From Escherichia coli (GTDB taxonomy: Bacteria; Pseudomonadota; Gammaproteobacteria; Enterobacterales; Enterobacteriaceae), in the NCBI RefSeq assembly GCF_022846255.1, contig NZ_AP025682.1: a stretch of DNA of 64,000 bases; one strand, written 5' to 3'. Shown here in pieces: positions 1 through 28,482 of the stretch. A model generated the notes under the pieces. That model was not told the DNA's origin. It made no database searches and saw nothing but the letters and a program-made list of their open reading frames with translations. Numbering within the stretch: position 1 is the stretch's first letter; each line of letters starts with the position of its first letter. The translations under genes and the position numbers were made by a program.

Positions 1-918
1 CTCCACGTGCCAGTGGTTTCGGATTGCTGTGGCGAACTTCTCTGCGGTTAAATCAGCAGAACTGATATAATATCTGACCGTCATTTCTGGCTATTTCTTT
101 TGTTCTGCTATTATGGACCGAAAGGAGACTGCCACGCATAATTTCTTCAGTCCTTTCCATTCAAACGTGAAATCAATAAGTTCATCAGGGACATCGCAAA
201 CAATATGAAGACGGATTTCTTCTCTGCCGTGACTTTTTTCACTAATTGCGTAACTGTCATGCTCTGGATTATTCAATTCTTTCAGCGGAAATTTTTCCTC
301 GAAGGCTTTATTTAGCCGCCCCTGGTTTCCTTTTACAGCGAATAAATAATCACCTCCCTGTTTTTGTATCTTCTCTGCAATATCTTTCTGGCAACCCATC
401 GCATCAGTTGTGATGATTTTTCCTTTAATATCCAGCATGTTAAGAAGTTCAGGGATAGCTGTAATTTCATTGGATTTCTCATCCGTCCTGATCTGTCCGA
501 TGACCAGACTGTGCATTGTTGAGAACGCACTAATGACATGAATCGCTCCCCTGCGGCGACTCTTGTCATAAGAATGTCGGAGCGTTTTTCCATCAATTGC
601 AATAACGTCTTTATCATCTGAAGAATGGCAGTCACGCATCCAGTTAATAAAGCACTCGTGAAATTTTGCAGGACTGATACAGGATACAACTCTGGCAATG
701 GTATCGTGAACAGGAATACCATTTTCAAAATCACCATATTGCTTCAAAAAATCGAGATGTGTTTCCCCAAAATCCTCTATATCTTCCCAGCCTTCTGCAC
801 CAGAAATAACGGCACAAATAGTCAACAGTAGAATATCCGATAATTTATGTTCCACTTTCCAGGCTTGTCTGTAATCGGGGATAATAGAAATATGTTCCAT
901 CAATTTTTTAAGTACCAT
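1..918 (-). mobile_element. ISAs1-family (H-repeat-associated) transposase gene, disrupted: in-frame TAG at 91-93, homologous reading frame continues to the window edge
   Basis: 275-aa [29 protein letters not shown]... matches the N-terminal three-quarters of E. coli H-repeat/ISAs1 transposases. Reverse-complement of 1-90 continues in frame as [30 protein letters not shown] after the stop. Confidence 0.7.
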
Positions 919-1147
919 TTTGTTCTCCTTAATTATGTAAGGAGTATTTGATCATGTATAAGCAATAAAAAACAGCTTCAGGTAATGAGGAATATCTCAA
1001 TTTTTAAACATAAAATGCGAATTATTTAGTACAAAAAAGCAGCGTTACGTGATCTTTCCCTGACTGTGTAGGAAAACAGGTTTCCAAGCCCTTCCGAACC
1101 ATTCATGCCTGCAAACAAAAGCAGCTGCGGCGGCACCGCACTACCAC

Positions 1148-1468
1148 TTACTGTGACGTTATGCGCCCCGGACCACCGGCAGCAAGCGACGCCGCCGCAT
1201 CCTGAACTGCACCAGCCATATCCGAGATCCCTGCTGCTGCAGCGGCAGCCTGCGCAGCAGCTACTGCTGCTTTAACCAGACCTGACGGTTCCGGCAACGC
1301 ACCAAACAGGTCCGCCGCTGCCTGTTCTGCCATCTCCTCGGCGGCACCAGATACATCGGTTACGGCTGAACCTGTGCTCATACCGCCACTTTCGCCAGCT
1401 ATTGGTGGTGTGGTGATGACGGGTCCACCGTTTCCAGCTGGTTTGTTACCCGTAGATACAAAACTCAT
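1148..1468 (-). CDS. hypothetical small Ala/Gly-rich protein (106 aa), no recognisable domain
   Basis: ORF with an AGGA-containing putative RBS upstream of the ATG; low-complexity A/G-rich translation; GC-rich relative to AT-rich flanks; lies just downstream of a putative immunity gene. Confidence 0.3.
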
Positions 1469-1492
1469 GATATTTATTCCTTTAATATCGGA

Positions 1493-1864
1493 TTAGAATT
1501 TAGCGCCCGGCTGCCAGAAAAAATAAGAAATAACCCGCCACTGTCCATCTTTATAATGAAAAAAACATGTCAGATTTAAATCCCCCCGCAAATGCCAAAA
1601 CATTTCTTTGATGGGAATATTTCTGAATTCAGTATTCGTTGAGCGATAGGTGTTTTCAATTTCTATATAATACTCACCGACAAATTTATAACGAGGCTTT
1701 ATAAATTCATACGCTGGCTGACCATAGTTATTTAATAGAACATTCTCTTCAACTCCATTATACACACCACTCGCATTCAGATAAGCATGCCCAGGAATAT
1801 CAGACATGCTATTTTTCGCCCCACCCACTATCAAAAAAATTATCACAGCGTATATTAGTTTCAT
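1493..1864 (-). CDS. putative periplasmic immunity protein (signal peptide), partner of the upstream HExxH protein
   Basis: N-terminal hydrophobic signal-like segment MKLIYAVIIFLIVGGAKN; start overlaps the stop of the upstream gene by 4 nt (translational coupling); no recognised domain. Confidence 0.4.
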   Translation of the reverse strand: MKLIYAVIIFLIVGGAKNSMSDIPGHAYLNASGVYNGVEENVLLNNYGQPAYEFIKPRYKFVGEYYIEIENTYRSTNTEFRNIPIKEMFWHLRGDLNLTCFFHYKDGQWRVISYFFWQPGAKF

Positions 1865-2601
1865 TTTTTTACGCTTTTCACAAAAAAATTAGAACCCGGA
1901 ACCATTCTATTTAACCGCTCAATGACATTTCTCATATAACGAGAGCGCAGTTCCATACCAATATTCATTAACGCACTGGCGTCCCCGGAGAATGGTGTAG
2001 TTGCTTTATCTGCATCATCACTATAGTATTCATCAGCAAGATATCCAATAATATGCCCAAGCTCGTGAGACAGCCCTATTTGCTCATGGCAAACTTTTGA
2101 TGAGCCAAGACATTTAGCTGCTGCAACTATATCTTTAGAGTCAAGTTCAACGTATCGACTATTCCAGACAATGGAACTCTGTCGAAAACTATTTGGATCA
2201 TCATTATCAATTTTAAACACCACCACATCCCAATACCCATGACGATCAGTCTGAATTATTTCTATTGAGAAAGATAAATCCTTACCATTAAACTTACTGG
2301 CAAACTCAGACTTCCCAGAAACGGATAAAAAAATCTTATTATTCCATGTTTGATTAATGACAAAAATAACTTTCCCATGAAAGGCATTTTTCTCCAAATC
2401 TGTCCAGTCAGTTTTTGCATCCCATCTTTTTATCCAATTATATTTCCATCTCAGCAACAATGAGATTGCACCATTTTCACGGTCAATTCTTAAATCTCCC
2501 CAGGCATCATTGTCCCTGATATATCGTTTATCCAGCATTAAGTCGTCATAAGCATCGTATGCCTGCTGAATAGCTTCATCATGAGAGTCACCCATGTTCA
2601 C
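1861..2601 (-). CDS. putative zinc-metallopeptidase-like protein (HExxH motif), candidate T6SS effector
   Basis: 246-aa ORF with strong RBS (AAGGAGG) and motif SHELGHIIGYLADEY; no signal peptide; followed by an overlapping signal-peptide ORF; located in the effector-rich tail of the T6SS island. Confidence 0.4.
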   Translation of the reverse strand: MNMGDSHDEAIQQAYDAYDDLMLDKRYIRDNDAWGDLRIDRENGAISLLLRWKYNWIKRWDAKTDWTDLEKNAFHGKVIFVINQTWNNKIFLSVSGKSEFASKFNGKDLSFSIEIIQTDRHGYWDVVVFKIDNDDPNSFRQSSIVWNSRYVELDSKDIVAAAKCLGSSKVCHEQIGLSHELGHIIGYLADEYYSDDADKATTPFSGDASALMNIGMELRSRYMRNVIERLNRMVPGSNFFVKSVKK

Positions 2602-2801
2602 CTCCTTATATTGCTATATATCCAATAAACCTGAAGATGCTTGCTTACCCACCAACGCAGACGGGACCAAGGGTAGCCTGAAGTCAACAGATAGCAGTCA
2701 ACTTGAAGTTCATGGGGATATTTGTTTCCCCATCTACACGTTTATCGTCATATTTTTGTATAGCTATTCTCAGCATTCGTGGGTAGATTATTTTTTTCCA
2801 A

Positions 2802-2906
2802 CCGCAGCGCATCCACATACCGCCCCTCGCTGTTCTGCTGCCACAACCAGCCCTGCCCCTGCTGCGCCTGCGTTAACATTTTTGCTAGCCAGCACGGTCA
2901 CGGCAG
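2802..2906 (-). repeat. degenerate ~105-bp copy of the 3' end of tagF (direct repeat of 3902-4007)
   Basis: Read by eye: ccgcagcgcatccacataccgcccctcgctgttctgctgccacaaccagccctgcccctgctgcgcctgcg... aligns with 3902-4007 at roughly 90% identity; the copy lacks the tagF stop context and sits between two effector/immunity modules. Confidence 0.8.
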
Positions 2907-2924
2907 GCAATTCCATGACAGGTA

Positions 2925-3398
2925 CTACTCATCCGTACAACCCAGCCCCCGGCGCTGAACCACTTCACTGGCAAACGTAGCTCCGGTTTTTTTCATTATT
3001 CCTTTTTGTATTTTTTGCAGCGCGGGAAATGAGATTCTCCTGCATGAATCCTCTTCCCATATATCACCAGTTACAGGACTAACTGAAAATAGTCCCCACA
3101 CATCTGTCGCTCCGGCGGAAGGAGAATCATAACCTACCCCAAAACTAAAATACCCAGGATGATACAGGTTACCTTTTTTATCTTTCAGAGAACCGTCAAG
3201 AAAAAACCCAGACAATTCCACATTATATTTTTCATTTTTTAGTGAAAAAACCAATAATGCCTGCGCCTGTATTTCAGTAAGACCTGACTGGTTAACAGTC
3301 GTTAGATCAAACCGCGGCACATTCCTGATAAGAATTTCAGCACAACAATTCACGGACACGACCATGAAAAGCAATACTGATATTAATTTACAGGACAT
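2925..3398 (-). CDS. putative periplasmic immunity protein (signal peptide) for the upstream GH73-like protein
   Basis: N-terminal signal-like segment MSCKLISVLLFMVVSVNCCA; overlaps the upstream gene by 16 nt; no recognised domain. Confidence 0.4.
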   Translation of the reverse strand: MSCKLISVLLFMVVSVNCCAEILIRNVPRFDLTTVNQSGLTEIQAQALLVFSLKNEKYNVELSGFFLDGSLKDKKGNLYHPGYFSFGVGYDSPSAGATDVWGLFSVSPVTGDIWEEDSCRRISFPALQKIQKGIMKKTGATFASEVVQRRGLGCTDE

Positions 3399-3853
3399 GT
3401 TATTCTCCGCTTAACCATATTAATCACCCACACTAACTCACTAGCATAACCGGTATGGCCGCCATTACTGTTTTTACCTGAATTAAAACCAGAATCAATC
3501 AATGCCTGCGCAAATTGCTCCGGAGATTTTTTATTTCTGACCGCATTACCAAATCGGATTGCAAAGGACTTTCCGCTAGTTGAAAAAAAGGTATAAGTGG
3601 CAACCCACACTTGATTACTCCCCAGCGGGTGAACCTGTCCTGACTGTAAAGGTGCCGGACCATGCATGGAAAAGTAGTTATTGTATTCTGTCGCGATTCT
3701 ACCCTGCCCGTAAAAGGACTCCTTTGCAGCAAGCCCCAGGATATTTTCCACAGGCACATCAAGTTGCTTAGCGATTAATTCACATTCTTTCAGATATTGC
3801 TGTACAAACCTGACTGCACCAGTGTTATTACAGGCTTTATCATAAGACCCCAT
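3383..3853 (-). CDS. GH73-like (FlgJ-type) N-acetylglucosaminidase-like protein, candidate peptidoglycan-targeting T6SS effector
   Basis: 156 aa, no signal peptide, RBS AAGGAG; motif LGLAAKESFYGQG...YNNYFSMHG resembles the GH73 catalytic region (AQAALESGWG...NNLFGIK) recalled from memory; immediately downstream of tagF. Confidence 0.45.
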   Translation of the reverse strand: MGSYDKACNNTGAVRFVQQYLKECELIAKQLDVPVENILGLAAKESFYGQGRIATEYNNYFSMHGPAPLQSGQVHPLGSNQVWVATYTFFSTSGKSFAIRFGNAVRNKKSPEQFAQALIDSGFNSGKNSNGGHTGYASELVWVINMVKRRITCPVN

Positions 3854-3880
3854 GATTCACTACTCCTTGTCTGATTATTT

Positions 3881-4651
3881 TTAATGCGGCCGGATATCCA
3901 GCCGCAACGCATCCACATACCGCCCCTCGCTGTTCTGCTGCCAGAACCAGCCCTGCCCCTGCTGCGCCTGCGTCAGCATTTTGTCCGGCCAGCCCGGCCA
4001 CGGCAGGTGGCGCACACCGGGCAGTTCCACTACCGGCACGTCCGGCAGGCCGGTGAGTTCCCGGCTACGCTGCGGTACACGTCGTAAGCCGCGTAGCCAC
4101 TGCGCCCAGCGCGGCCCCGGTCGCCACATCGCCCAGAGCTGGTCTGTCTGCTCCGCCAGTCGACCGCAGCGTTCTGTCTGTGGTGAGACATGAGCTGCCG
4201 TCAACTGCGCCAGCCAGTACAGCCAGCCCTGTGTGTCATCCAGGCTCTCTTCCAGCCATTCCCGCCCGACACGCTGGTAAATCACCAGTGGCCACGGCCT
4301 GCCCGTACTGTCACGCGAGGCGGTCAGGACCCCGGTCAGCCACTCATCGCGCCCGCCAATGGGGAGAAATCCCGGCGACAGCACAAAACTCCACGGCAAT
4401 GGGTGGTGCTCCGGTAGTGCCGTTTTCTCACGTGGTGACAGGTGCATCCAGCCGTCATTTGTTCCGGCCTTCGCAGCATCCGTTCCTTCCGGCAGAACAA
4501 TATGCCGTCCCTGTCCCAGCCACGTTTGCTGGTTCAGCCACGCCTGCCACACCTGCCCTTCGTTCGCGCTCACTCGCCAGCGCACATAGTCCCGCTGGTC
4601 CGGCAGTCTGCCGAACATCGCCGGGGCCGATATCTCTGCCCGGCGCATCAC
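3881..4651 (-). CDS. tagF: T6SS-associated protein TagF (ImpM family)
   Basis: N-terminal FGRLPDQRDYVRW matches the TagF signature (FGKLPxxGDFVxR); W-rich, GC-rich ORF downstream of the tssM/tae4 block. True start may be the internal Met of AMFGRLP. Confidence 0.6.
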   Translation of the reverse strand: MMRRAEISAPAMFGRLPDQRDYVRWRVSANEGQVWQAWLNQQTWLGQGRHIVLPEGTDAAKAGTNDGWMHLSPREKTALPEHHPLPWSFVLSPGFLPIGGRDEWLTGVLTASRDSTGRPWPLVIYQRVGREWLEESLDDTQGWLYWLAQLTAAHVSPQTERCGRLAEQTDQLWAMWRPGPRWAQWLRGLRRVPQRSRELTGLPDVPVVELPGVRHLPWPGWPDKMLTQAQQGQGWFWQQNSEGRYVDALRLDIRPH

Positions 4652-4836: not shown

Positions 4837-5313
4837 TTAATTCAGTTCCCAGAACCAGATTTCCTTGCAGCTAAAATAGCAATGTGAATGACATATAGCA
4901 CCTGTGGTAGAAGGCTCAATAAGATCTATATGACCGCCACCGTAACCCGTAATTTTCCAGAAAAAGACCACTCCTCTTTTATTACTGGTGTCTGTTTTAA
5001 ATTTTTCTGAGTCACACCAGATAACTGGTCTTCCAAAAACATCAGCTCGGGAAAGCTGATCTGCCAGTAATTTCGCACCGGTTTCTATTTTCTTCCCTTT
5101 CCAGTCACCACTTTTGATCGTCAGTCGCCCGTTAAAGCTGACGCCTGATTTAATCAGCGCCAGACTCATACGTGTGGCACAGGTATTTACATAACCAGCA
5201 TTTTGCTGTTGCAGTGCTTCATAGTTATAACCCACTTCACTGTACAAAACATCACCATCAATCTGAACTGATGAGTAATGGTTTTTTTTAAGTGTGAAAA
5301 ATGAAGGTTTCAT
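4837..5313 (-). CDS. tae4: Tae4-family peptidoglycan amidase effector
   Basis: 158 aa; motif NTCATRMSLALIKSG matches the Tae4 catalytic Cys region (NACPIRMSYVLN) and GGGHIDL the His region, by recall of Salmonella/Enterobacter Tae4; no signal peptide; start overlaps the stop of the upstream signal-peptide gene. Confidence 0.65.
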   Translation of the reverse strand: MKPSFFTLKKNHYSSVQIDGDVLYSEVGYNYEALQQQNAGYVNTCATRMSLALIKSGVSFNGRLTIKSGDWKGKKIETGAKLLADQLSRADVFGRPVIWCDSEKFKTDTSNKRGVVFFWKITGYGGGHIDLIEPSTTGAICHSHCYFSCKEIWFWELN

Positions 5314-6005
5314 TTATTATTTCCTTTATCACAGGAGTGTTTACTTAGTGCCTCAATAATAATATTTGCAGCCCGTTCATTCAGTTTATCTGACGTTTTT
5401 TTTCTGAAATACCAGTAAATAATCTCATCCAGTGTAACTGTTTTAATCGTTTTATAATCGCACCATGTTTTTCTTTCCGTGGCATCTTCTATACCCAAAA
5501 GATAGATTTTCGCATTAAGCCTATCCTGCCTGTTATCTGACTGCCAGAAGCGGAAAAAATCATCTCCGTTCAGATCGAACGCGCCAGAGGTCAGGTGTGA
5601 AACAGATGAATGCCGGGGAGATTTTTTTTCCGGTGATGCCATATCCGGGCAGGGAAACAGCCTGACCATCGCTTGTTCAATCAGAGTTGAAGCTCGCATA
5701 TTCATATCGTTAACCGACTGCTGATTAAGATATGTCAGTACCGATGAATAAAGTTCTATTTCATTAATCTTATTATATCCACACCAGGTTTTACTTTCTG
5801 TCGCATCACTCACACCAAGGACATACATCAGAACATTTTCTTTTTCCTGTGACGTTCCACGAGCATAAAATGACAAAAATTCCTGCGCACTGAGATTAAT
5901 ATAATCGGGGTCAATAGTTCCTGTGTTTTTTCTGATATCAGCAAAAACATTTCCTGACATGGCATATAACAAAAAAATAATAAAAAAACGCGTATATTGT
6001 TGCAT
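5310..6005 (-). CDS. tai4: Tai4-like periplasmic immunity protein, internally tandem-duplicated (two homologous domains)
   Basis: Signal peptide MQQYTRFFIIFLLYAMSGNVFA; the two halves are visibly homologous (…VLMYVLGVSDATESKTWCGYNKI… versus …KIYLLGIEDATERKTWCDYKTI…); 4-nt overlap with tae4. Confidence 0.5.
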   Translation of the reverse strand: MQQYTRFFIIFLLYAMSGNVFADIRKNTGTIDPDYINLSAQEFLSFYARGTSQEKENVLMYVLGVSDATESKTWCGYNKINEIELYSSVLTYLNQQSVNDMNMRASTLIEQAMVRLFPCPDMASPEKKSPRHSSVSHLTSGAFDLNGDDFFRFWQSDNRQDRLNAKIYLLGIEDATERKTWCDYKTIKTVTLDEIIYWYFRKKTSDKLNERAANIIIEALSKHSCDKGNNK

Positions 6006-6251: not shown

Positions 6252-9200
6252 TCACAGCGCTCGCTCCGGGCAGGCGAAGCGTTGTAATAGTCCGCGATCC
6301 ACTGGGTCAAAATCCCGTCCGGCGGTGATTTCCAGTATCACCCGCCGCCCGTCAAAGCTGTACTCCACCTGCTGTGTTCCCCGTACCGCCGTTTCTTGCG
6401 CTTTTCCCGCATCCAGCAGGTGAAACAGCGCCCACGGTCCATTAGTCAGCAGCGTCGAGGTGTCCTGGCGGATGCGCGGGCTGGCGGTTATTTCCGCCAT
6501 TGAGCCGTTGCGCGGACCCGGCCAGTTCACTTTCAGCGGCCTGACCGGGCCGTGAGCGTAACGCAGTACCTGGCCGTCAATGTCAATCACCAGTTCGGTG
6601 ATGGCCGGGTCCATATCCACGACGCGGACCTGCATCGCCCATGAGAACTTTTTCCCTCCGTCGCCGTTAAAAAACACGCTGCGGATCTGTTTCGCCTCCT
6701 GAAACGGCGTCAGGTCTGGACCCTGTAAGGTCATGTTGCCTTCGGTCGGTTTGTAGCGCCACGGGTTGCTGGCGGTATCCGCCAGTGGGGCCAGTTGCTT
6801 CGTCCAGAAGGCATCCAGCACGCCGCCGCTGGCAAAGATACGGTTAAAATCGTCCGCGCTGACCTCCTGCGGGCTGTCGGTGAAGGGGTAGCGCCCGTCG
6901 ATGGCGTCGCGGCACTCATCACCGATCACCGCCTCCATCTGCGCGTTCAGCACTTCACCGGTGCCGGCGTTGATTTTTCGCGTTCCCTGCTGCGTGAGAT
7001 CCAGCAGAATATTTTTCAGCGGCGCGGGCAGTTTTGCCGCCTCCAGTTGCAGTTTATCCGCCGCAGAAATGCGCCCCGGCAGAGTGCTCGCAGCCAGCGC
7101 ACTGTCGGCAATGGTGAGCTGGGTGTAGTACTCATTGAGCATCGTCAGCAGCGAATTTAATTGCGGCACGCCGCCGCCCTGCCCGCTGTCCGTCTGCCCG
7201 GAAACCACTTCCCGCAGGGCGGCGAAACGGTCATCCACCAGTGATTTTTCCAGCCGCTCTTCCGGGTGAATGTCCTGCAACAGCTTCGCCGTCTGCACCG
7301 CTTTTCCCGCATTGCCGGAGAGCCGGTCCTGCGCGCGCTGGGCCATCTGCTTTTGTCTGGCCTGCGCATTCAGCGGCGGCACCAGCGTGGTCTGCTCCAC
7401 CACCGCTTTACTCAGGCGCATCAGCGGGGAATCCGGCGAGGCCAGAGTACGCAGCACCTGAAGGTCATACGCTAGTCCAGGGCTACCGTCCTCCCCGGCG
7501 CTGTTGATGCTGTGAATGCTTGCCAGAAAATCCTGCCATCGGCGAGCATATTCAGCCAGGTACAGACGACGTACCTCACGGGTAACCGGGAGTTCCTGCC
7601 CCGGCAACTGGCTCATCACAATATCAGTCGTTTTTTTTTGCGCACTTTCCCGGCCCATCACCCAGGCGTCGTCCGCTGATGCGGCGGCGACAAACTCCGA
7701 CAGCCGTTTGTCGAACAGTTCCCGGTAGCCTTCGCGGGTGAAGATGCCGGGCACGCCCCTGTCCAGCGGCGCGCCATCCGTGCGGACAAAAACTGTTCCC
7801 GCATCCGCGCCCACAGCGCGAACCAGCGAAAACTCCTGCGGTGCTTCGCTCTCCATGGAAGCCAGGGCTCGAGTGTAGATACGCTCAGTGCTGGTATGGC
7901 CGTCAAGGAAGGCCCGCGCCTGGCGGATCAGCCCCTCATCTTTTTCCCAGGGCGAATGCACCACGCGGCTGCCGTCAAACAGGGCGTCAATATGCTCCAG
8001 CACGGCTGCGCGACCGCCAAACTCCGCTACGCTGTCGCGGTTGTCCAGATCGTTCAGCACCCAGGCGTGGATCTCCGCCGCGTTGTATTTGTCCTCGTGG
8101 TCCTTATCGAGGTTCAGCAGCAGATAAACATGCAGGGCGTCATAGGCGGCTTTGCTGTCCTGACGCGCAATCGCATCTGAAAGCACGTATTCCATTCGTT
8201 TCACCAGCGGAGGGAGCAGTAGCTGGTCCAGCAGGCGGTCATACAGGGATGCGACACTCTCCATCACCGGCGGGACGCTGTAAAGACCATAACGCCAGGC
8301 CAGCGGCGGCGAGTCCGGGTCCAGCCCCGGCCAGGCAGAGAGCGCCCGCGCCTGGTTCAGCAGGGCCGGAACAGGCTGCATAGCAGGTTTTCCGGTATAG
8401 GCTTTGACATCACCATCCAGTTGGGTCGTCCGGCTGGCGATTTCATTCAGATAACCGCTGTTACCCTGCTGGCTACCCTGCATTCCCTGCCACAACCAGA
8501 AAGCCAGCGCCAATACCAGCAGATGCCCGCCGGTACGCAGCAGGCGATAACGCCAGGCCCATTGAAGATTCGGCTCCACCAGGTGCGCTTCGCGGAAGAT
8601 AAACTGCGTCAGTAGATCGTGCAGGAAATAGCTGCGGTTGCCGTCCGGCAGGGTATGGGATGGGGAATCCGCCTTCCCTTTGATCGCCCGGACAAAACGC
8701 TGCCAGATGCCCGTCTGATCGGCCACCGCGTCTGCCTGCGCCTGCGCGGCACTGGTGAAAAATACGCCGCGCAGGGTGTTGTTAAGCTGGGTAGCATCAA
8801 ATTTTGAATCGAGGAAAATCTGTTCAATAGCTTCCAGCAGCGGCGCACCCAGCGCGGCAAATTCACGCGGGAAGCGGTAGAGCCGCTGACGGCTTTTAAG
8901 GTCATATTCTTCCTGCAACCGGGTATCCAGCCCCTGATCCAGCCGCTGTGTCAGGTTTGCCAGTTCCCGGCCACAGAGCGCATGCAGCGACTGCGGATCG
9001 CTGGCGTGACGCCTGCGGCTGTAAGGCAGGGTGAAGCCCCAGACCTGGGCTCGCAGGTGACTGGTCAACCCACGGAAATACTCCGTAAAGCCCGGCAGCA
9101 GATCCATCTTGGTGACAACCAGATAGACCGGAAAACGAATGCCCAGCGTCTCCCGCAGTTCCGCCAGCCGCGCACGCAGAGCTGCACAGGCAGCCAGCCG

Positions 9201-18345: not shown

Positions 18346-18636
18346 TTAAAAATCATACGCAGAGAGTATTTTTATAATCTCTTTGTTTTCTTTGTACTTT
18401 TCCCGCAGCACAGGGAGTGATTTCTTTGCCGGAGGACACCAGGTATCAACCCCCTTTTCGATGTCTCTTTTATCCTTCTCTGGTAAAGAACTGTCCCATT
18501 CACCAGCAAGATGCTGGCACATTTCCGCATTACTCAGAAAATGCTGCACATCCTGTGGTAAAGGCGGTTCCCCCTGAACACAGAAAGCGAAAATCATTAA
18601 CAGGAATGTCAACAACATCGGATAACGAAATGCCAT
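18346..18636 (-). CDS. small secreted protein, putative immunity protein for the upstream M15-like peptidase
   Basis: 96 aa with signal peptide MAFRYPMLLTFLLMIFAFCVQG; starts 2 nt after the stop of the peptidase-like gene. Confidence 0.35.
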   Translation of the reverse strand: MAFRYPMLLTFLLMIFAFCVQGEPPLPQDVQHFLSNAEMCQHLAGEWDSSLPEKDKRDIEKGVDTWCPPAKKSLPVLREKYKENKEIIKILSAYDF

Positions 18637-18638
18637 AC

Positions 18639-19202
18639 TTAATGTCCATCAATTGACCAGTGAGGTATATCTGTATTGCCGCCAACAAATTTTCTGACGC
18701 CGTAACCCAGACCTACCGCCTGAAGCTGGGCATTCATTCCGGTTCGAGGTAGTGTATTAATTGCAACATTCTGACCATTGCTCCCCGCAATTGTTAATGT
18801 TCCGCTCCAACTGATATTCATATCTATCGCAGTACCGCGTGTATGGTTGGAGCTCAGTGCAGGCGCGACATTCAGATTATTCATACCATAGGCCGTAACC
18901 ATAGCCTGCGCCGCTTCAAGCGAGGCTTGCTCAGTCGGGTGAACCCACTCAATATCCACCCCCTCCATCGCCGGGACGTTTTTTGCCTGAACGATTTCAT
19001 GAGCAATCAACCATGACCAGTGCATGAGATATGCTCTGGCGGGAGGGCGATATGTTGCAGAAATACTGACCCTTGCGCGTGCATTACCAAGCGCTCGCAA
19101 AAAATTATCTACCGATGCACGAAAAGTCCCCTGCAAATCATTAGTGGAAGAACTTCCAGGAAAGCGACTGACCCACAGTGCGCCACTTAATTCTTTTGCC
19201 AT
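18639..19202 (-). CDS. M15/LAS-family zinc peptidase-like protein, candidate peptidoglycan peptidase effector
   Basis: 187 aa, no signal peptide; motif SSNHTRGTAIDMN fits the M15 signature S-x-H-x-x-G-x-A-x-D, with a downstream His pair (DIPHWSIDGH); located between clpV and tssB. Confidence 0.45.
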   Translation of the reverse strand: MAKELSGALWVSRFPGSSSTNDLQGTFRASVDNFLRALGNARARVSISATYRPPARAYLMHWSWLIAHEIVQAKNVPAMEGVDIEWVHPTEQASLEAAQAMVTAYGMNNLNVAPALSSNHTRGTAIDMNISWSGTLTIAGSNGQNVAINTLPRTGMNAQLQAVGLGYGVRKFVGGNTDIPHWSIDGH

Positions 19203-22180: not shown

Positions 22181-23095
22181 ATGAAACCAAATATTACGTG
22201 GGGACTCCAAAAAATACAGGCGCACGGGATCGCCGATAACACAATTTACGCGACTGAAGGAACCCAAATTATCTTCACCGTTACCTCACCCTGGATTCCT
22301 GTTTTTGAGGTGAATGATGATGTAAAGATTGCCCTCAGTCTGACCCGCCACGAAGAAGCATGGTGGATTATCAATCAGTCTACCGAATATTGCTGTACGG
22401 TAAACGACCAGATTGTGGAACCTCATCACCGTATGCGTCTGAATGAAGGCGACCTGATAGAATGGGGGTTATCTTCATGGTGCCTTGTGCACGGCAATCC
22501 ATCATCTCCGGACCTGAGCGCAGTAAAAACGACATCGCAGACTGCCACCATGTCGGAAACAATAACCGAATATCTGGATCTGGATTGGTTCAGGCAGCAG
22601 CATCTGACATCACAAAATCCATTCGATATCATTCCTGTTCATGGAGCCTCCTCCACTGGAGAAGATGCTAAAAAAGAAAATGCCCTGACTCGACTTTATC
22701 AGGAATACCGCGAGGCGTTGTTATCTCCTGAACAAGATCTTCATCGCCATGCTGATCCTTTTCCTTTTAACGAAGAGCCCTCCTCACAGGATCTGGATTC
22801 ATTGCGTGATCTGGTCACTGAAGCCGAGACATTGCAGGATATGGTCACTGGCGGGTTAAGCATTGACGCTATTCTCGATGTCCTGGACGCCACCGGCGAA
22901 GGGGAAACCGCCTGGCCTGCCGAAAAGACACCCCCAGATATCCTGCACCTGCTATCCCCGGAATGCGCACCGGAAACAGCGCATAACACCGTTCTACCCG
23001 ACCTGACACGCAAAGAGCATCGCATCATTGGCATTGACAGCCATTATCGGATAAACCCGGCACAACACGGAGAGATATCTCATGACAAACAATAA
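22181..23095 (+). CDS. FHA-like domain protein (TagH/Fha-like T6SS accessory protein)
   Basis: 304 aa; N-terminal region loosely fits the FHA pattern (…SLTRHEEAWWI…TVNDQIV…LNEGDLIEWG); first gene of the plus-strand T6SS operon. Domain call is tentative. Confidence 0.4.
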   Translation: MKPNITWGLQKIQAHGIADNTIYATEGTQIIFTVTSPWIPVFEVNDDVKIALSLTRHEEAWWIINQSTEYCCTVNDQIVEPHHRMRLNEGDLIEWGLSSWCLVHGNPSSPDLSAVKTTSQTATMSETITEYLDLDWFRQQHLTSQNPFDIIPVHGASSTGEDAKKENALTRLYQEYREALLSPEQDLHRHADPFPFNEEPSSQDLDSLRDLVTEAETLQDMVTGGLSIDAILDVLDATGEGETAWPAEKTPPDILHLLSPECAPETAHNTVLPDLTRKEHRIIGIDSHYRINPAQHGEISHDKQ

Positions 23096-23912
23096 CGAGC
23101 TACCGGCTACCCTGTCGGCGCTGCTGCGGGATTATTCCGTGGCGGAGGGCATTCAAATGGCAGAGCAGCAGGTCAGGATGTACCCGGCGCAGGCCTCCCG
23201 CCGCCACAGCCTATTTCAGTTATTGTGCGTGGCAGGCTACTGGTCGCGGGCACTGCAACAGATCCAGCTATGCGCCCGGATGGACGCAAATTATACCCGC
23301 GAAGCGCAGGTATTTGGCGAGCTGATACGCTGTGAGATATACCGCCACGCCTGCTTTCAGGGAGAACAGCGGCCCGATTTTATTCTCCCGCCGCCCGCCT
23401 GGATGGAGGATCTGCTGACCGCCCTCGCCTGTAACGCTCGTGGTGAAGCGCAGGAAGCTGACGCCCACCGCAGCCGCGCACTTGAGGCCATAACAGATAC
23501 TGCAGGGCAGTGGAATGGCGGCGCATTTGACTGGATTAGCGACAGCGACTCCCGTACCGGTCCGGTACTCGAACTCATCGCGGGCGGAGTATATATCTGG
23601 CTGCCGTTTTCACAAATCTGTTCGCTAAAATCGCCGCGGCCTGCGCATCTGACCGATTTGATCTGGAAACCCGTCAACGTCACACTGAATAATGGCGACA
23701 CACACAGTGCCTGGCTGTTTTCCCGCTACAGCGGCTCTGAAAAGGCTGCCGACTCCCTGCGTCTGTGCCGGGAAACGGTCTGGCAGGACGGGCCGGGAGA
23801 GACTCTGGTACAGGCGCTGGGTCAGAGGGTGTGGCTCACCGGTCACGGCGATATCAGCCTGCTGGATTTGTCCACCTGTACCTTTAACACCGCTGAAGGA
23901 AGCGACGCGTGA
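23082..23912 (+). CDS. tagJ: T6SS accessory protein TagJ (ImpE family)
   Basis: 276 aa; size and position directly upstream of tssE; ImpE-like composition; overlaps neighbours at both ends (operon coupling). Confidence 0.5.
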   Translation: MTNNNELPATLSALLRDYSVAEGIQMAEQQVRMYPAQASRRHSLFQLLCVAGYWSRALQQIQLCARMDANYTREAQVFGELIRCEIYRHACFQGEQRPDFILPPPAWMEDLLTALACNARGEAQEADAHRSRALEAITDTAGQWNGGAFDWISDSDSRTGPVLELIAGGVYIWLPFSQICSLKSPRPAHLTDLIWKPVNVTLNNGDTHSAWLFSRYSGSEKAADSLRLCRETVWQDGPGETLVQALGQRVWLTGHGDISLLDLSTCTFNTAEGSDA

Positions 23913-24403
23913 GCGCTTCCCGCCAGCGTCCGGGCAATCACCTGCTGCCCACGCTGTTTGACCGCCTGTGTGATGATGCCCCAAACCAGAAACGCGACCA
24001 CGATATCAGCGTCAGCCCGGTTCAGCTTAAGGAGATCATTCGCCGGGATTTGTCATTTCTGCTCAACACCGTCAGCCATGAAGATGATATTGATGCTGCA
24101 CGTTATCCGGACGCGGCAGCGTCCGTACTGAACTACGGCCTGCCGCCACTGGCGGGCAGCTTTCTGTATGAACACAAGTGGGACGATATTCGCAGGGCCA
24201 TTTTGCGTACCATCATCCGGTTTGAACCCCGGCTGAAAGCGTCCACCCTGCAAATCATCCCACTTCAGGATGAGCGCCACCAGAGCGGCCATAACACATT
24301 ACAGTTTGAAATTCGCGGCGAGATCCTCACGCAGCCCTACCCGATGGCATTCCGGGTACGCAGCGCGCTGGATATGGAACAGAGCCGCATTACGTTTTTT
24401 TAA
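23909..24403 (+). CDS. tssE: T6SS baseplate protein TssE (gp25-like)
   Basis: 164 aa; LLPTLFDRL...RRDLSFLLNT is typical of TssE/GPW-gp25 family. Confidence 0.8.
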   Translation: MSASRQRPGNHLLPTLFDRLCDDAPNQKRDHDISVSPVQLKEIIRRDLSFLLNTVSHEDDIDAARYPDAAASVLNYGLPPLAGSFLYEHKWDDIRRAILRTIIRFEPRLKASTLQIIPLQDERHQSGHNTLQFEIRGEILTQPYPMAFRVRSALDMEQSRITFF

Positions 24404-24418
24404 TTCAGAGAGAAACCG

Positions 24419-26302
24419 ATGGATCCACGGCTACTGGAATACTACAACCGCGAACTGAGCTATCTGCGGGAAACGGGAGCCGAATTTGCCGCCCGTCATC
24501 CTAAAGTCGCCGCCCGACTGGGTATGCAGGGAACGGATATTGCCGATCCGTATGTGGAGCGAATGGTCGAGGCCTTCAGCTTCCTGACCGCCCGCACGCA
24601 GCTAAAAATTGACGCTGAATTCCCCCGTTTCACCCAGCGTCTGCTGGAAGTGGTCAGCCCCAATTACGTCACACCCACGCCCTCAATGAGCGTGGCGCAG
24701 CTTCATCCCGATCCGGAAGAAGGCGATCTGGCGAAGGGATTCACCGTCCCGCGCAACACGGCCTTTTTTTCCGCCATTCCGGAAGGCGAAAGTACCGCCT
24801 GCCAGTTTCGTAGCAGCCAGAATGTGACGCTGTGGCCGCTTGCCATCGAAGAGGTGCGGCTGACCGCCGCGCCGCCGGATATGCCTGCCCTGCACCGCTA
24901 CCTGCCAGCCAACATTCACGTCGCTGGTGCGCTGCGTATTACCCTGCGCACCTTTGGTGAACTGACGTTCAGTCAGCTTGCAGGGCTGAACAAGCTGCCA
25001 TTTTATCTCTGCGGCGAGGAGCGCACGGCCTCACACCTGTTCGAACTACTGCATACCAGCGCCATCGCGAGCCTGGCTGGCATTCCGGGGCATTTTGACG
25101 GCGCACTGGATGTGAATCTGAAACAGCCCGTTATGTACGAAGGCCTGGATCCGGATCAGGGACTGTTGCCGCTGGCGTGGAATGTGTTTCACGGCCATAA
25201 CCTGCTACATGAATATTTTACCTGTCCGGAACGCTTCTTTTTTTTCACCCCGACAGGCCTGTCTGACGGGTTACAGAAAATTAACGGCGGCGTGGCGGAG
25301 ATTGTTATCCTGCTGAACCGCCTGCCGCCGGACTGGCTGATCCACCAGACAAACGCGGCACAGTTCAGCCTGTTCTGTACCCCGGTTATCAACCTGTTTC
25401 CCCGCGTCGCCGCCCGGATCGATGTCACGCACAGCACGACGGAACAGCATCTGGTGGTGGACAGAACCCATCCGCTGGATTATGAGGTGTTCTCGGTCCA
25501 AGAAGTGGAAGGGCTGGAAACTGACACCACACGGAAGATGGCCTTTCGCCCGCTCTACCACACCCGCAATAATGATGAAGGCAATCACGGACGTTATTTT
25601 TCCCTGCGCCGGGAGCCGCGCCGGTTGTCGGAAAATGCCCGCCGCTATGGCACCCGCACCTCCTATACAGGATCAGAAGTGTTCCTGTCGCTGGTTGACC
25701 AGTATGAAGCGCCGTACCCGGAAAATCTGCGCCATATCACCATCACGGCTATGGTCACCAACCGCGATCTGCCCTGTCTTATTGCCCGCAATGGACGGGA
25801 CGATCTGACCGTGGATGCGGCCATCCCGGTGGCGGGTGTGGGGCTTATCCGTCCGCCGCGTCCGCCGCAGCCTCCGCTGGCTGAACGTGAAATGGCCTGG
25901 CGGTTGATCCGCCAGTTATCCTTTAACTATCTGCCGCTGGCCGATCTGGATCACCGTACCGGTGGTCAGGCGCTGCGCGATCTGCTTAACCTGTTTATTC
26001 CGGCGCATGACAGTCCGCAGTCGCGCCAGGTGCGCAGCCTGATTGGCTGCAACACCACCCCGGTCACCCGCCGTCTGCCCGGTTCCGGGCTGCTGGTCTA
26101 TGGGCGCGGCGTCAGTTGTGAACTGACCGTGGATGAGGAGGGGTTCTCCGGTATCAGTCCGTATCTGTTCGGTCTGGTGTTGGAGCACTATATCGCCCGT
26201 CATGTTTCCATTAATACCTTCTCGCAGATGACGCTGCACAGCATGCAGCGCGGCAAAATTATGACCTGGCCTGCCAGGACGGGACAGCGGGGAAGCGTAT
26301 GA
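24419..26302 (+). CDS. tssF: T6SS baseplate protein TssF
   Basis: 627 aa; N-terminus MDPRLLEYYNRELSYLRETGAEFAARHPKVAARLG is the TssF signature. Confidence 0.85.
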   Translation: MDPRLLEYYNRELSYLRETGAEFAARHPKVAARLGMQGTDIADPYVERMVEAFSFLTARTQLKIDAEFPRFTQRLLEVVSPNYVTPTPSMSVAQLHPDPEEGDLAKGFTVPRNTAFFSAIPEGESTACQFRSSQNVTLWPLAIEEVRLTAAPPDMPALHRYLPANIHVAGALRITLRTFGELTFSQLAGLNKLPFYLCGEERTASHLFELLHTSAIASLAGIPGHFDGALDVNLKQPVMYEGLDPDQGLLPLAWNVFHGHNLLHEYFTCPERFFFFTPTGLSDGLQKINGGVAEIVILLNRLPPDWLIHQTNAAQFSLFCTPVINLFPRVAARIDVTHSTTEQHLVVDRTHPLDYEVFSVQEVEGLETDTTRKMAFRPLYHTRNNDEGNHGRYFSLRREPRRLSENARRYGTRTSYTGSEVFLSLVDQYEAPYPENLRHITITAMVTNRDLPCLIARNGRDDLTVDAAIPVAGVGLIRPPRPPQPPLAEREMAWRLIRQLSFNYLPLADLDHRTGGQALRDLLNLFIPAHDSPQSRQVRSLIGCNTTPVTRRLPGSGLLVYGRGVSCELTVDEEGFSGISPYLFGLVLEHYIARHVSINTFSQMTLHSMQRGKIMTWPARTGQRGSV

Positions 26303-27294
26303 GCGACGATTTCACTCAGGCGCAGGAACCCCCCTGGCGTTACGGTTTTCTGAACCTGATGCGCCGCGTGGATGTGCAGTTGTGTACTGTTCCGGCAGGC
26401 AACACCTGGCAACCACGGATGGAAAAATTTCGCCTCGGACAAACTCCCGCGCTGACCTTTGCGCCACGGGAAATCGCCAGTGTGAGCTGGCAGGAAGAGC
26501 GGCTGCACATCAGTTTGTACAGTCTCGGGCTGTGGGGGCCGAACGGTCCACTGCCGCTGCACTACACCGAACTGGCGCGCAACCGGACTGAAAGCCGAAG
26601 AGACCCGACGCTAACCCGTTTTTCTGATCTTTTTCATCACCGCTGGCTGACGCAGTTTTACCAGGCATGGCGCAGCGCCCAGTCCGCTGGGGGCGGTCTG
26701 GATAAACCACAACATGACCGTTTTGCCTTTTATATCGCCAGCCTCAGCGGGCAGGATTTGCGGGAGAGCGCCGACAGCCCGTTGCCGGATCACGCTCGCC
26801 TGGCGGCATCGGCCCATCTGGTGCGTGAGTCCCGCAATCCGGACGGTCTGGCCACCACGCTGGCGCACTATTTCGGTGTACCTTTCCGGATACAGGAGTA
26901 TGTCCTGCACTGGATAGCCGTGGCGGACGATGAGATCACCCGGCTGGGGATGCCAGCCCCCTCTTCCGTTATTGGCAACGGTGCACTCATCGGCCAGGCC
27001 GTGCCGGACATGCAGTATAAGTTCCGGCTGGTTATCGGCCCGCTGACGCTGGAGGATTACCGACGTTTTCTGCCTGGCGGCAATAACCTGCCAGTCCTGA
27101 CAGAACTGGTCCGCGCCTTTAGCGGTTTTGAATACTGCTGGGAAATTGAGCTACAGCTAAAGCCCCACGCCGCCCCTCCGGCTGTTACCGGTGGTTCGTA
27201 CCAACTGGGCTGGACCGCATGGGCGGGTAAAGCCATGCACGAAAACCCGGTGACGGGCATGATTTTCGAACCAGAACACTACCTGGCGCACTGA
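26299..27294 (+). CDS. tssG: T6SS baseplate protein TssG
   Basis: 331 aa; 4-nt overlap with tssF; conserved TssG N-terminal region (WRYGFLNLMRRVD). Confidence 0.85.
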   Translation: MSDDFTQAQEPPWRYGFLNLMRRVDVQLCTVPAGNTWQPRMEKFRLGQTPALTFAPREIASVSWQEERLHISLYSLGLWGPNGPLPLHYTELARNRTESRRDPTLTRFSDLFHHRWLTQFYQAWRSAQSAGGGLDKPQHDRFAFYIASLSGQDLRESADSPLPDHARLAASAHLVRESRNPDGLATTLAHYFGVPFRIQEYVLHWIAVADDEITRLGMPAPSSVIGNGALIGQAVPDMQYKFRLVIGPLTLEDYRRFLPGGNNLPVLTELVRAFSGFEYCWEIELQLKPHAAPPAVTGGSYQLGWTAWAGKAMHENPVTGMIFEPEHYLAH

Positions 27295-27304
27295 GGATAA
27301 TTTA

Positions 27305-28351
27305 ATGGATACATCCCTGTCTGACCCAATTTCGGAAGAATGCCCCTGCGGCCCGGATCTGGAGTACGATCCGGAATACCTGCTACTGTTCACGCGCGCC
27401 GCACAGCGTGAAGAAGCGCAATACGGCGATTTTGTCAGTACGCCGGAAACCATTAACTGGGCGGAGCTTGAGCGGGATGCCTGCCGCCTACTGACGCGCA
27501 GCAAAGATATCCGCATTCTGGTTGTCCTGCTGCGCTGCCGTATCCAGCAGGCCGGTGTCAGGGGACTGGCGGAGGCGCTCGCGCTGCTGGAAACGTTGTG
27601 CGCTACGTACCCGAACGCCATCCACCCGCAACTGCTCGCGACTGAAGATATCACCGCCGAAGAGGCGGCAGTGGCACGTAGTAACGCCCTGGCGGCGTTG
27701 CTGGACCATGAAGGCGTAATAGCGGATATTCGTGGCATTACACTGTCAAACAATGCTGCCATACGCCTTCAGGTACGGGATGTGGAGCGTTCGCTGTCTG
27801 CATCACGCCCGGCGGATGCGCTGGCACCAGAATCGGTACGCCAGCAACTGGCCGACCTGGAGGCGCGCGGCACACTGCCGCTGGATGCCTTTCGCCAGGC
27901 CGCAGAGACCACTGAGCGGCTGCAACGCCATGCGCGTGAAACGCTGAATGACCAGGCACCGAACCTATCCCGTCTGACACAATTGCTGGCCCTGTTGCCG
28001 GGAGCGATACGGACCACCACGCCGGAGATCCTGCCACAACCAGTGGCTGAACAGGCGGAGAGCACCACCATCGTTCATACTGAACAGATATCATCAGAGC
28101 AGATTGCGCTACCGGTGCATATCGCGGAGGAAATATCACCGATGTCCGGCGCAGAACCCCGGCAGATCCGCGACCGGAACGACGCGCTGGAACGCCTGCG
28201 TGTCATCCGTCGCTGGTTTGAGCACAGCGAACCGAGCAGCCCGACCATTCCTTTGCTGCGCCAGGCAGAACGCCTGGTCGGAAAACGCTTCTCGGAGGTA
28301 ATAAATGAAATTCCAGTAGAACTGCTGGAAAAATGGGATGCGCTGGAGTAA
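27305..28351 (+). CDS. tssA: TssA (ImpA N-terminal domain protein)
   Basis: 348 aa; ImpA_N signature ECPCGPDLEYDPEYLLL...; last gene of the operon before aspV. Confidence 0.8.
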   Translation: MDTSLSDPISEECPCGPDLEYDPEYLLLFTRAAQREEAQYGDFVSTPETINWAELERDACRLLTRSKDIRILVVLLRCRIQQAGVRGLAEALALLETLCATYPNAIHPQLLATEDITAEEAAVARSNALAALLDHEGVIADIRGITLSNNAAIRLQVRDVERSLSASRPADALAPESVRQQLADLEARGTLPLDAFRQAAETTERLQRHARETLNDQAPNLSRLTQLLALLPGAIRTTTPEILPQPVAEQAESTTIVHTEQISSEQIALPVHIAEEISPMSGAEPRQIRDRNDALERLRVIRRWFEHSEPSSPTIPLLRQAERLVGKRFSEVINEIPVELLEKWDALE

Positions 28352-28357
28352 CAGAAG

Positions 28358-28389
28358 TGGCCAGAATTTATATTATCTGGCCATTTTTT
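28358..28389 (+). terminator. rho-independent terminator downstream of tssA
   Basis: Inverted repeat tggccaga / tctggcca (28358-28365 and 28376-28383) followed by TTTTTT. Confidence 0.6.
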
Positions 28390-28443
28390 AAATCATATTC
28401 GTTTTACTTGCGGAGTGAAAAATTCTCGCTTCACCAAAACGAC

Positions 28444-28475
28444 GAAAGCCCGAATCAGTAATGATTCGGGCTTTC
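28444..28475 (-). terminator. hairpin downstream of tRNA-Asp (aspV)
   Basis: Perfect inverted repeat gaaagcccgaatc / gattcgggctttc immediately 3' of the tRNA on the minus strand, followed by a short T-run. Confidence 0.55.
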
Positions 28476-28482
28476 TGAATAT

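Follow-up and report, generated by a model that had tools for sequence, protein, structure and literature searches.

Which kind of type VI secretion system (T6SS) does Escherichia coli carry beside its aspartate tRNA gene aspV, what is encoded by the small gene pairs interleaved with its structural genes, and can the machine still fire? These questions are raised by a 64,000-nucleotide stretch of E. coli contig NZ_AP025682.1 (assembly GCF_022846255.1; hereafter the window), positions 1-28482 of which form a T6SS island at tRNA-Asp (aspV)/dnaQ (Table 1). The island extends a known kind of T6SS by a new member from E. coli and does not represent a new type of system: the region is very probably the E. 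coli orthologue of SPI-6 (pathogenicity island 6 of Salmonella), an antibacterial T6SS island of subtype i3, with its slots filled by effector/immunity cassettes and its spike lost.

The setting is that of an E. coli chromosome, as 5,425 of the 5,426 complete genomes searched contain the flank at 28400-36000, with identities of 95-99%. A preliminary description of this DNA had placed a T6SS island at aspV that is missing from K-12, and synteny with strain MG1655 bears this out: the MG1655 interval from aspV to yafV spans only ~2.4 kb (yafT, ykfM, yafU', yafF'), so the island is absent there, while at least 28.4 kb of DNA differing from K-12 separate aspV from the window start. The left end of the island lies beyond the window, position 1 falling inside a copy of the insertion sequence (IS) ISEc1 which in strain E04 is followed by yafV. 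A tssBC query detected this island type in 117 of the 5,426 complete genomes (~2%), and it is therefore not among the common E. coli T6SS clusters. Strain E04 provides the best annotated match (99.8% identity over 3897-29000), and in none of the complete genomes does the match to window 1-24000 extend over more than 96%, so that the combination of six modules described below is unrepresented in that set. Literature searches found no paper on this island type in E. coli, which is absence of evidence only.

Comparison with Salmonella SPI-6 identifies the relatives of the apparatus. The closest TssC outside Escherichia is that of Salmonella enterica (88-93% identity, against ~80-83% for other Enterobacterales), and TssK is far from the Sci-1 TssK structures of enteroaggregative E. 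coli (EAEC; E=3e-23), matching PDB 5Y0E at 4e-82. In the Salmonella locus examined (L013), dnaQ and tRNA-Asp are followed by tssA-G-F-E-tagJ-tagK and, divergently, by tssH-tssB/C-Tae2/Tai2-hcp-tssJ, with identities to the window of 98% for TssB/C, 96% for Hcp, 90% for TssF, 88% for TssM and 83% for TssH; the gene order of the tagK-tssA block (22181..28351) is the same in both. Because insertion site, gene order and high core identities coincide, we regard the island as the E. coli orthologue of SPI-6. The SPI-6 T6SS belongs to subtype i3 (PMC10469887), and the island is by homology a probable SPI-6-type (i3) member, the subtype being the one that the literature gives for SPI-6. The Salmonella loci have peculiarities of their own: L013 and a second S. 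enterica locus (L014) have tssB and tssC called as one fused 607-aa protein at 10001-11824 (Pfam VipA+VipB), and tssJ runs straight into a tssL fragment with no tssK, an island that looks degraded.

Intact open reading frames (ORFs), as judged by ORF length, the E04 RefSeq annotation and NCBIfam/Pfam matches, are present for tssA, B, C, E, F, G, H (clpV), J, K, L and M, for hcp and for tagF, tagJ and tagK. With Hcp counted as TssD, 12 of the 13 core components TssA-TssM (A-H and J-M) are thus intact. Both tagF and tagJ had been recognised in the preliminary description, and the FHA-like gene mentioned there proves to be tagK.

Interleaved with these structural genes are six bicistronic modules, lettered A to F, all on the minus strand, in each of which a small enzyme of 122-246 aa without a signal peptide (A1 to F1) is paired with a signal-peptide partner (A2 to F2). 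An N-terminal hydrophobic segment was detected by hydropathy in none of the six enzymes and in all six partners, and the paired genes overlap or sit at most 12 nt apart in every module. The six pairs reported earlier are all real, but the reported arrangement, with the signal-peptide ORF following the enzyme, fails for pair C, where it lies upstream. Four of the six enzymes belong to established effector families, namely Tae2, Ssp1-like Tae4, Tge2 and a short Tlde1-domain protein. The Tae4 and Tlde1-like assignments had been made before, and the labels GH73-like, M15-like and HExxH given to three further enzymes were correct at fold level. Of the four families held not to be nameable as effectors, two are established: the GH73-like pair is Tge2/Tgi2 and the one called unknown is Tae2 with Tai2/STY0301, both structurally solved. 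The other two, M15-like and HExxH, already appear among the candidate effectors catalogued for SPI-6 (PMC10469887; PMC11669294).

Modules B, C and E resemble their characterised relatives closely. The structure matched by B1, PDB 4KT3, is that of Tge2PP/Tgi2PP (PMC4832377). In C1, Cys45 aligns with the catalytic C50 of Ssp1 and the His of the GGHIDL motif is kept. C2 combines a C-terminal half matching Rap1a (3ZFI, 1.7e-25) and an N-terminal half matching Tai4 (6IJF, 2.3e-7), and is encoded upstream of C1, unlike the enzyme-first order. Although C2 is a single 231-aa polypeptide here, E04 annotates the same DNA as two Rap1a/Tai coding sequences (189 and 414 nt); either E04 has a broken fusion or there is an error in one of the gene calls. 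E1 scores 167.9 bits against NF033857 (cutoff 27) and matches a structure titled 'Type 6 secretion amidase effector 2' (PDB 6WIN), and its partner E2 scores 67.2 bits against NF042415 (cutoff 22), the STY0301 family named from an S. Typhi SPI-6 gene, and shares 50% identity with the gene that Salmonella has in this slot.

Module D is less typical. The catalytic motif of D1, H84-x10-SDGC98, has a shorter spacing than the H-x(14-17)-(S/T)HGC motif of the LD-transpeptidase domain of Tlde1 (PMC9638812), with Asp replacing the His of the canonical (S/T)HGC, and a PDB search gave no sequence match to any solved structure, only noise. We file D1 as a putative short Tlde1-domain protein, a member of the domain family but not Tlde1a; its size and motif are consistent with the short Tlde1b/c-type subfamilies without a capping subdomain and with the 122-aa SPI-6 candidate 'Pgp2' (PMC10469887). 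D1 also matches, over its full length, a phage protein family of unknown function (phrog_24118, E=3.6e-21), and relatives of D1 are therefore also carried by phages. D2 has no significant family match in NCBIfam or Pfam, and is 86% identical to a Citrobacter and 74% identical to a Salmonella protein in the same slot. Its first 110 residues align weakly with models of the A subunit of Shiga toxin Stx2 (E ~2.5e-3; 17 bits, where the cutoff is ~735) and with phrog_866 (6e-4), and F2 hit StoA_CxxC (28 bits against a cutoff of 210); both the Shiga toxin and the StoA matches are probably spurious and driven by the signal-peptide region.

Is this armoury still connected to a working needle? The 'full set of T6SS core components' reported earlier is wrong on one main point: vgrG has been cut short by ISEc1 and PAAR and Rhs are gone, so that neither an intact TssI (VgrG) spike nor a PAAR tip is present within the 64-kb window. 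A tblastn search of the 64 kb with E04 VgrG recovered residues 1-84 and 103-146 only, frameshifted, while E04 Rhs and Eag gave no match and no PAAR gene was found either. Window positions 1-1063 match ISEc1 and its terminus, and from 1060 on the match is to E04 from 14249, so that E04 7063-14249 is missing, a stretch comprising most of vgrG as well as eag/DcrB, rhs and the immunity gene of rhs. The IS transposase ORF (91-918, minus strand) is itself truncated to 275 aa from the 378 aa in E04. Since the same IS terminal sequence (...GCAGCGTTACGTRATCTTTCCCTG) abuts another vgrG position in Escherichia sp. E1V33, position 1063 is a true IS end, and since the junction codon differs, ISEc1 struck vgrG independently in two lineages; the junction seen in the window is shared by no complete E. 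coli genome. The vgrG remnant is 99.1% identical to E04-like and 99.3% identical to AR_0077-like sequences, and identity does not tell these ancestors apart. As for the IS itself, it is 97.1% identical to that of E04, while the rest of the island exceeds 99%, and may be a different or decaying copy.

We infer that, failing a spike encoded in another part of the genome, the island is probably unable to fire; 64 kb are visible here, and a trans-acting vgrG or PAAR gene beyond them would count against that loss. It is possible, if doubtful, that the island is still an active weapon whose needle is completed by a vgrG and PAAR from elsewhere on the chromosome, with the small effectors riding in Hcp. 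All other core genes are intact ORFs, and the six enzymes are small (13-28 kDa) and compatible with transport in the Hcp lumen, which is established for Tse1-, Tae- and Ssp-type effectors. Orphan vgrG-rhs loci are also frequent in E. coli genomes, and E04-type genomes show extra Rhs-related matches. Against this stand the lack of any vgrG beyond the remnant, of PAAR and of Rhs in the window, the prospect that a foreign VgrG of another T6SS subtype may not fit this baseplate, and the slot of A1 next to vgrG together with the PAAR linkage of F1 homologues (see below), which suggest that those two enzymes depend on the spike. We favour an island that has lost its spike to an IS while keeping all its immunity genes, and which illustrates cleanly, in nature, the 'keep the shield, drop the sword' outcome predicted for T6SS arms races.

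Modules A and F lie outside the named families. The preliminary description had considered that the small pairs might turn out to match housekeeping or phage proteins; A1, A2, F1 and F2 have no family assignment in NCBIfam, Pfam, PHROGs or PADLOC, and so none to housekeeping, phage or defence-system proteins. For A1, whose gene overlaps that of A2 by 4 nt, Pfam gave only a weak Peptidase_M64 match at the HExxH motif (E=0.11 over 25 residues) and a PDB sequence search only noise. Its homologues came into view with an exhaustive profile search, which retrieved 306 representatives, mostly single-domain proteins of ~215 aa, where a word-indexed search had given 5 clusters only; a shallower profile scan of the genome collection gave two loci only, and two further A1 relatives, on contigs under 2 kb, gave no informative gene context. 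Residues H179, E180, H183, D190 and Y192 are invariant, with Met212 almost fully conserved, and A1 combines the HExxHxxG...(D/H) zinc site, Met-turn and fold of the M64-like metzincins. The tagF-vgrG slot, immediately upstream of vgrG, is taken by genes resembling both A1 and A2 in two other hosts, Citrobacter amalonaticus (76% identical) and Escherichia sp. E1V33, from a cryptic Escherichia clade (36-38%), and a 243-aa Salmonella relative of A1 is 48% identical. By size and label, the latter fits the 243-aa 'Peptidase_M64/Reprolysin_4' listed among the candidate effectors of SPI-6 variable region (VR) 2 (PMC10469887; PMC11669294). A2, of 123 aa, is filed in a 90%-identity cluster with a 244-aa A1-type representative to which its sequence is unrelated, a placement which is a clustering artefact or due to fused gene calls.

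Because its partner is exported, A1 is expected to act in the periplasm, and we infer that an envelope protein or peptide is a somewhat likelier target than peptidoglycan. That every one of the six modules, with A1 among them, encodes a peptidoglycan hydrolase, which 'peptidoglycan-directed' in the preliminary description implied, is unlikely, although the periplasmic location would suit this, the five neighbouring modules are all peptidoglycan enzymes, and the 243-aa Salmonella relatives have been labelled 'peptidoglycan hydrolase (amidase)' (PMC10469887). That label rests on weak domain matches, of the kind seen here with Peptidase_M64, and every structural neighbour of A1 is a metzincin that cleaves proteins or peptides, none acting on peptidoglycan. 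The peptidoglycan peptidases known to us have other folds (LAS, NlpC/P60, YkuD, amidase_2/3), and the metzincin fold lies outside these. The description as peptidoglycan-directed therefore holds for five modules and not for the metzincin-like A1, which we continue to regard as a candidate cleaver of envelope proteins.

F1 represents a family of over 400 clusters spread through the Proteobacteria, usually at 50-60% identity, whose members NCBI labels just 'peptidoglycan-binding domain-containing protein'. No Pfam M15 model matches F1 by sequence, and the PDB sequence search returned noise only. Its AlphaFold (AF2) model, however, has a pLDDT of 96, and the top 20 Foldseek neighbours in the PDB are all LAS/M15 enzymes: Ply500 (3e-4), VanX, LdcB, VanY, VanXY and ChiX. 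R52, H88, H120, D127, D178 and H181 are invariant in 35 homologues and contain the LAS signature H120-x6-D127 ... D178-x-x-H181, so that the modelled fold is sound and the enzyme divergent. F1 would most likely cut a stem-peptide bond, L-Ala-D-Glu or D-Ala-containing. An 'L-Ala,D-Glu endopeptidase' in the tssH-tssB slot has been listed as a candidate SPI-6 effector (PMC10469887; PMC11669294), and by slot and label F1 corresponds to this already listed candidate, a 32-aa remnant.

The neighbourhood of F1 homologues points to a cargo effector. They lie immediately downstream of PAAR genes in Herbaspirillum and Ralstonia and near a vgrG cluster in Intestinirhabdus, and F1 and F2 are found together across genera: F2 homologues directly follow F1 homologues in Pectobacterium, Intestinirhabdus and Herbaspirillum (49%, 47% and 27% identity), each keeping a signal peptide and the same two cysteines. 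Having no hydrophobic segment (maximum 19-mer hydropathy 0.57), F1 cannot reach the periplasm by Sec, and with no anchor, no PF13539 domain, a secreted partner and PAAR-linked homologues it behaves as cargo and not as an assembly factor or endolysin. That F1 is instead a TagX-like housekeeping hydrolase opening the producer's own wall for the T6SS membrane complex, with F2 as its regulator or chaperone, is very improbable and was rejected as the main reading: although the best structural match, Ply500, served as modelling template for Acinetobacter TagX, the L,D-endopeptidase without which Hcp is not secreted, and although the pair, lying between tssH and tssB, two core genes, recurs in 116 of 117 islands, with an F1 guanine-plus-cytosine (GC) content of 46.8% that is nearer to core genes than to cassettes A-D, TagX has two transmembrane helices and a PF13539 domain and is not secreted (PMC5061870), whereas F1 gives no PF13539 match even at E<=10, its pairs away from T6SS structural clusters, directly downstream of PAAR in two genera or orphaned, are effector/immunity-like, and the orthologous Salmonella island lacks F1/F2, so that the pair is not required for this apparatus.

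Taken together, we put forward tentatively, as a near-even prospect on the doubtful side, that F1/F2 and A1/A2 are two experimentally uncharacterised toxin-antidote families, with F1 a T6SS cargo, A1 a cleaver of envelope proteins and the strain 'disarmed but immune'. Several observations weigh against the account of the island proposed here. The structural matches of F1 are weak in absolute terms (TM ~0.4, E 3e-4 to 0.1); the near-universal presence of F1/F2 (116/117) is odd for exchangeable cargo and would also suit an accessory role; the Pectobacterium F1+F2 genes are an orphan pair, no T6SS gene lies within 9 kb of a Rhizobium F1 homologue, and the Salmonella locus examined lacks the pair; and the candidate effector/immunity roles of A1/A2, F1/F2 and D1/D2 in E. 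coli are drawn from context, which for the first two means island location, exported partner and adjacency of homologues to PAAR or vgrG. If the proposal is right, F1 would be the first LAS/M15 metallopeptidase shown as T6SS cargo, from a family often linked to PAAR, and would be held in check by an inhibitor of its own, a periplasmic protein of ~75 residues in which two cysteines are conserved; A1 would kill by cutting an envelope protein and not peptidoglycan, and the strain would keep all six antidotes after an IS removed its needle tip.

The modules bear the marks of exchange. Cassette GC contents of 37% (A), 38% (D), 39% (C), 42% (B), 46% (E) and 47% (F) compare with 49-65% for core genes, and the modules, which sit in five slots (tssH|tssB, tssC|hcp, tssL|tssM, tssM|tagF and tagF|vgrG), are distributed unevenly: among complete E. 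coli genomes, module F was found in 116, D in 21, A in 18, B in only 12, and C and E in 10 each, counts made per cassette by megablast that miss divergent alleles of the same families. The tssC-hcp slot (VR1) holds Tae2/Tai2 here and Tae4/Tai4 in AR_0077 and PapRG-06-5. E04 lacks 2907-3897, the Tge2/Tgi2 cassette, which in the window is flanked by a duplicated tagF 3' end that PapRG-06-5 annotates as a TagF pseudogene. In AR_0077 and PapRG-06-5, A1/A2 are followed by a vgrG 5' fragment, a second A-type module and then a full vgrG. These tagF and vgrG scars indicate that cassettes accrete by recombination within conserved flanking genes. Arrays of two A-type modules occur at 7345-11368 in E1V33 (locus L007), 12437-15637 in PapRG-06-5 (L008) and 7340-10538 in AR_0077 (L015), each module being followed by a vgrG 5' fragment or full vgrG, with ISEc1 between the modules in E1V33; the arrays look as though incoming cassettes linked to vgrG had pushed older modules aside step by step.

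By analogy with the characterised families, the enzymes would ride as cargo on or inside the Hcp/VgrG/PAAR needle and be shot into the periplasm of Gram-negative neighbours, damaging the cell wall. Tae2 and the Ssp1-like Tae4 would cut amide bonds of the stem peptide, where F1, as an LAS/M15 zinc peptidase, most likely would also cut a bond, Tge2 would cut the glycan, the Tlde1-domain enzyme would trim or exchange the terminal D-Ala, and A1, as an M64-like metzincin, would more probably cleave an envelope protein or peptide than peptidoglycan. The signal-peptide partners would shield the producer and its kin, and cassettes would swap by recombination in the flanking conserved genes, leaving the tagF-3' and vgrG-5' scars. 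If disarmed, the island would now mainly give immunity to relatives still carrying the toxins.

Table 1. Features of the T6SS island and its right-hand boundary (positions in the window)
Feature	Position	Strand	Basis or remark
Partial ISEc1 (ISAs1-family, H-repeat)	1..1063	-	97.1% identical to E04 ISEc1; IS terminus at 1063
vgrG (tssI) 5' remnant	1064..1468	-	~137 codons, frameshift near codon 101
A2, 123-aa signal-peptide or membrane-anchored protein, putative A1 immunity partner	1493..1864	-	N-terminal hydropathy 3.07
A1, 246-aa M64-like metzincin zinc peptidase, candidate T6SS cargo effector	1861..2601	-	Motif HELGHIIGYLADEY, conserved Met212
Duplicated tagF 3'-end fragment, 111 bp	2797..2907	-	90% identical to 3897-4007 (self-BLAST); flanks Tge2/Tgi2 cassette
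B2, predicted Tgi2-family periplasmic immunity protein	2925..3398	-	Pfam T6SS_Tgi2PP 5.1e-12; signal-like N-terminus
B1, predicted Tge2-family peptidoglycan glycoside hydrolase (GH73-like)	3383..3853	-	PDB 4KT3 chain A 3.1e-45; Pfam Glucosaminidase 1.4e-5
tagF	3881..4651	-	NCBIfam TIGR03373 41.7 bits, above cutoff; Pfam TagF_N 3.2e-7
C1, predicted Tae4-family amidase, Ssp1-like	4837..5313	-	Pfam Tae4 5e-14; PDB Ssp1 4BI3 1.7e-57
C2, predicted tandem two-domain Rap1a/Tai4 immunity protein	5310..6005	-	Pfam Rap1a twice (9.7e-10, 2.7e-8); one signal peptide
tssM	6252..10118	-	E04 RefSeq annotation; 88% identical to Salmonella and Citrobacter orthologues
D2, signal-peptide partner of D1, Tldi1-like position	10446..10901	-	Hydropathy; RefSeq start 10889
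D1, short (122 aa) Tlde1-domain L,D-transpeptidase-fold candidate effector	10891..11259	-	Pfam Tlde1_dom 1.5e-10
tssL	11351-12667	-	E04 annotation
tssK	12664-14007	-	PDB 5Y0E 4e-82 vs EAEC TssK 3e-23
tssJ	14011-14565	-	E04 annotation
hcp	14612-15103	-	TIGR03344 match; E04 annotation
E2, STY0301-family protein, Tai2 position, putative periplasmic immunity protein	15277..15729	-	NCBIfam NF042415 1.2e-18; signal-like N-terminus
E1, predicted Tae2 amidase effector (NCBIfam BPSL0067 family)	15742..16149	-	PDB 6WIN 4.1e-32 full length; NF033857 8.3e-50
tssC	16200-17714	-	88-93% identical to Salmonella enterica TssC clusters; E04 annotation
tssB	17739-18284	-	E04 annotation; TssB/C 98% identical in Salmonella locus L013
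F2, 96-aa secreted protein, two conserved cysteines, putative F1 immunity partner	18346..18636	-	Signal-like N-terminus
F1, 187-aa divergent LAS/M15 zinc peptidase, candidate cargo effector	18639..19202	-	AF2 model, Foldseek, invariant residues
tssH (clpV)	19215..21848	-	E04 annotation; 83% identical to Salmonella orthologue
tagK	22181-23095	+	NCBIfam TagK 1.4e-166; weak N-terminal FHA, E=0.0097
tagJ	23082-23912	+	Pfam ImpE 8.8e-40
tssE	23909-24403	+	E04 annotation
tssF	24419-26302	+	E04 annotation; 90% identical to Salmonella TssF
tssG	26299-27294	+	E04 annotation
tssA	27305-28351	+	NCBIfam TssA
tRNA-Asp(GTC), aspV	28483..28559	-	ARAGORN; right island boundary
dnaQ	28692-29432		Just past tRNA-Asp

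Beyond the island, the flank at 28400-36000 is matched in two or three pieces by E04, 2014C-3338 and others, their match containing an annotated transposase of the IS3 family, which marks the mltD-yafC region as polymorphic for an IS insertion; the window is without this IS3-family insertion. A second tRNA-Asp at 36707-36783, tRNA-Ala and tRNA-Ile at 40141-40335 (minus strand) and a strongly negative GC skew over 37-42 kb indicate an rRNA operon downstream of the island, in what looks like ordinary chromosomal context. A 94-nt tRNA-His called by ARAGORN at 26085-26178 (plus strand) lies inside tssF, whose 627-aa ORF is 90% identical to Salmonella TssF, and is almost certainly a false positive.

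The island leaves the current understanding of how a T6SS works unchanged. It adds that an antibacterial T6SS of the SPI-6 type is in circulation, at low frequency, in E. coli and its cryptic clades as well, with the modular slots kept, and it offers in F1/F2 and A1/A2 two tractable candidate enzyme/inhibitor pairs that could widen the known envelope targets and supply new lytic enzymes.

Among characterised effector systems, E1/E2 is an ordinary member of Tae2 (6WIN)/Tai2 with no notable difference. The B pair resembles Tge2PP/Tgi2PP of Pseudomonas protegens, with B1 matching the effector chain (3.1e-45) and B2 the Pfam Tgi2PP family (5.1e-12), and differs in lying inside the structural cluster, bordered by the duplicated tagF 3' end. 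C1 matches Ssp1 of Serratia marcescens over its full length with the catalytic Cys kept, and the C-terminal domain of C2 matches Rap1a, but C2 is a single polypeptide of two tandem Rap1a-type domains with one signal peptide, encoded upstream of its effector. D1/D2 share with Tlde1a/Tldi1a of S. Typhimurium the Tlde1 domain, a putative LD-transpeptidase-type catalytic Cys, the tssL-tssM (VR2) neighbourhood and a periplasmic partner, and differ in the 122-aa length of D1, its SDGC in place of (S/T)HGC and the lack of a match to solved structures. F1 has the LAS fold and metal-binding motif of Acinetobacter TagX and of phage Ply500-type L-Ala-D-Glu endopeptidases, and differs from these in having no membrane anchor, signal peptide or PF13539 domain, in its pairing with a small secreted protein and in the PAAR linkage of its homologues.

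The system as a whole differs from Salmonella SPI-6 in its host, E. coli, where the type is rare (~2% of complete genomes); in the nearly fixed presence of full-length F1/F2 in the E. coli islands and their absence from the Salmonella locus examined; and in the removal by ISEc1 of the VR3 part (vgrG 3' end, Eag, Rhs). It also holds six cargo modules in one cluster, as against the 3-4 effectors usual for a Salmonella genome with one T6SS (PMC12994826), so that the module set called 'unusually dense' earlier is mildly so, although a gathering of peptidoglycan effectors in such slots is normal for SPI-6, with its variable regions VR1-VR3. The aspV-dnaQ insertion site, the gene order and the high core identity are shared with SPI-6; related E. 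coli strains carry vgrG-Eag-Rhs at the distal end, as SPI-6 does; and both the architecture and the effector families are those described for Salmonella (PMC10469887, PMC11669294, PMC12994826), with Tae2, Tae4, Tge2 and Tlde1 families and the 'Peptidase_M64' and 'L-Ala,D-Glu endopeptidase' candidates in the same slots (PMC10469887, PMC11669294).

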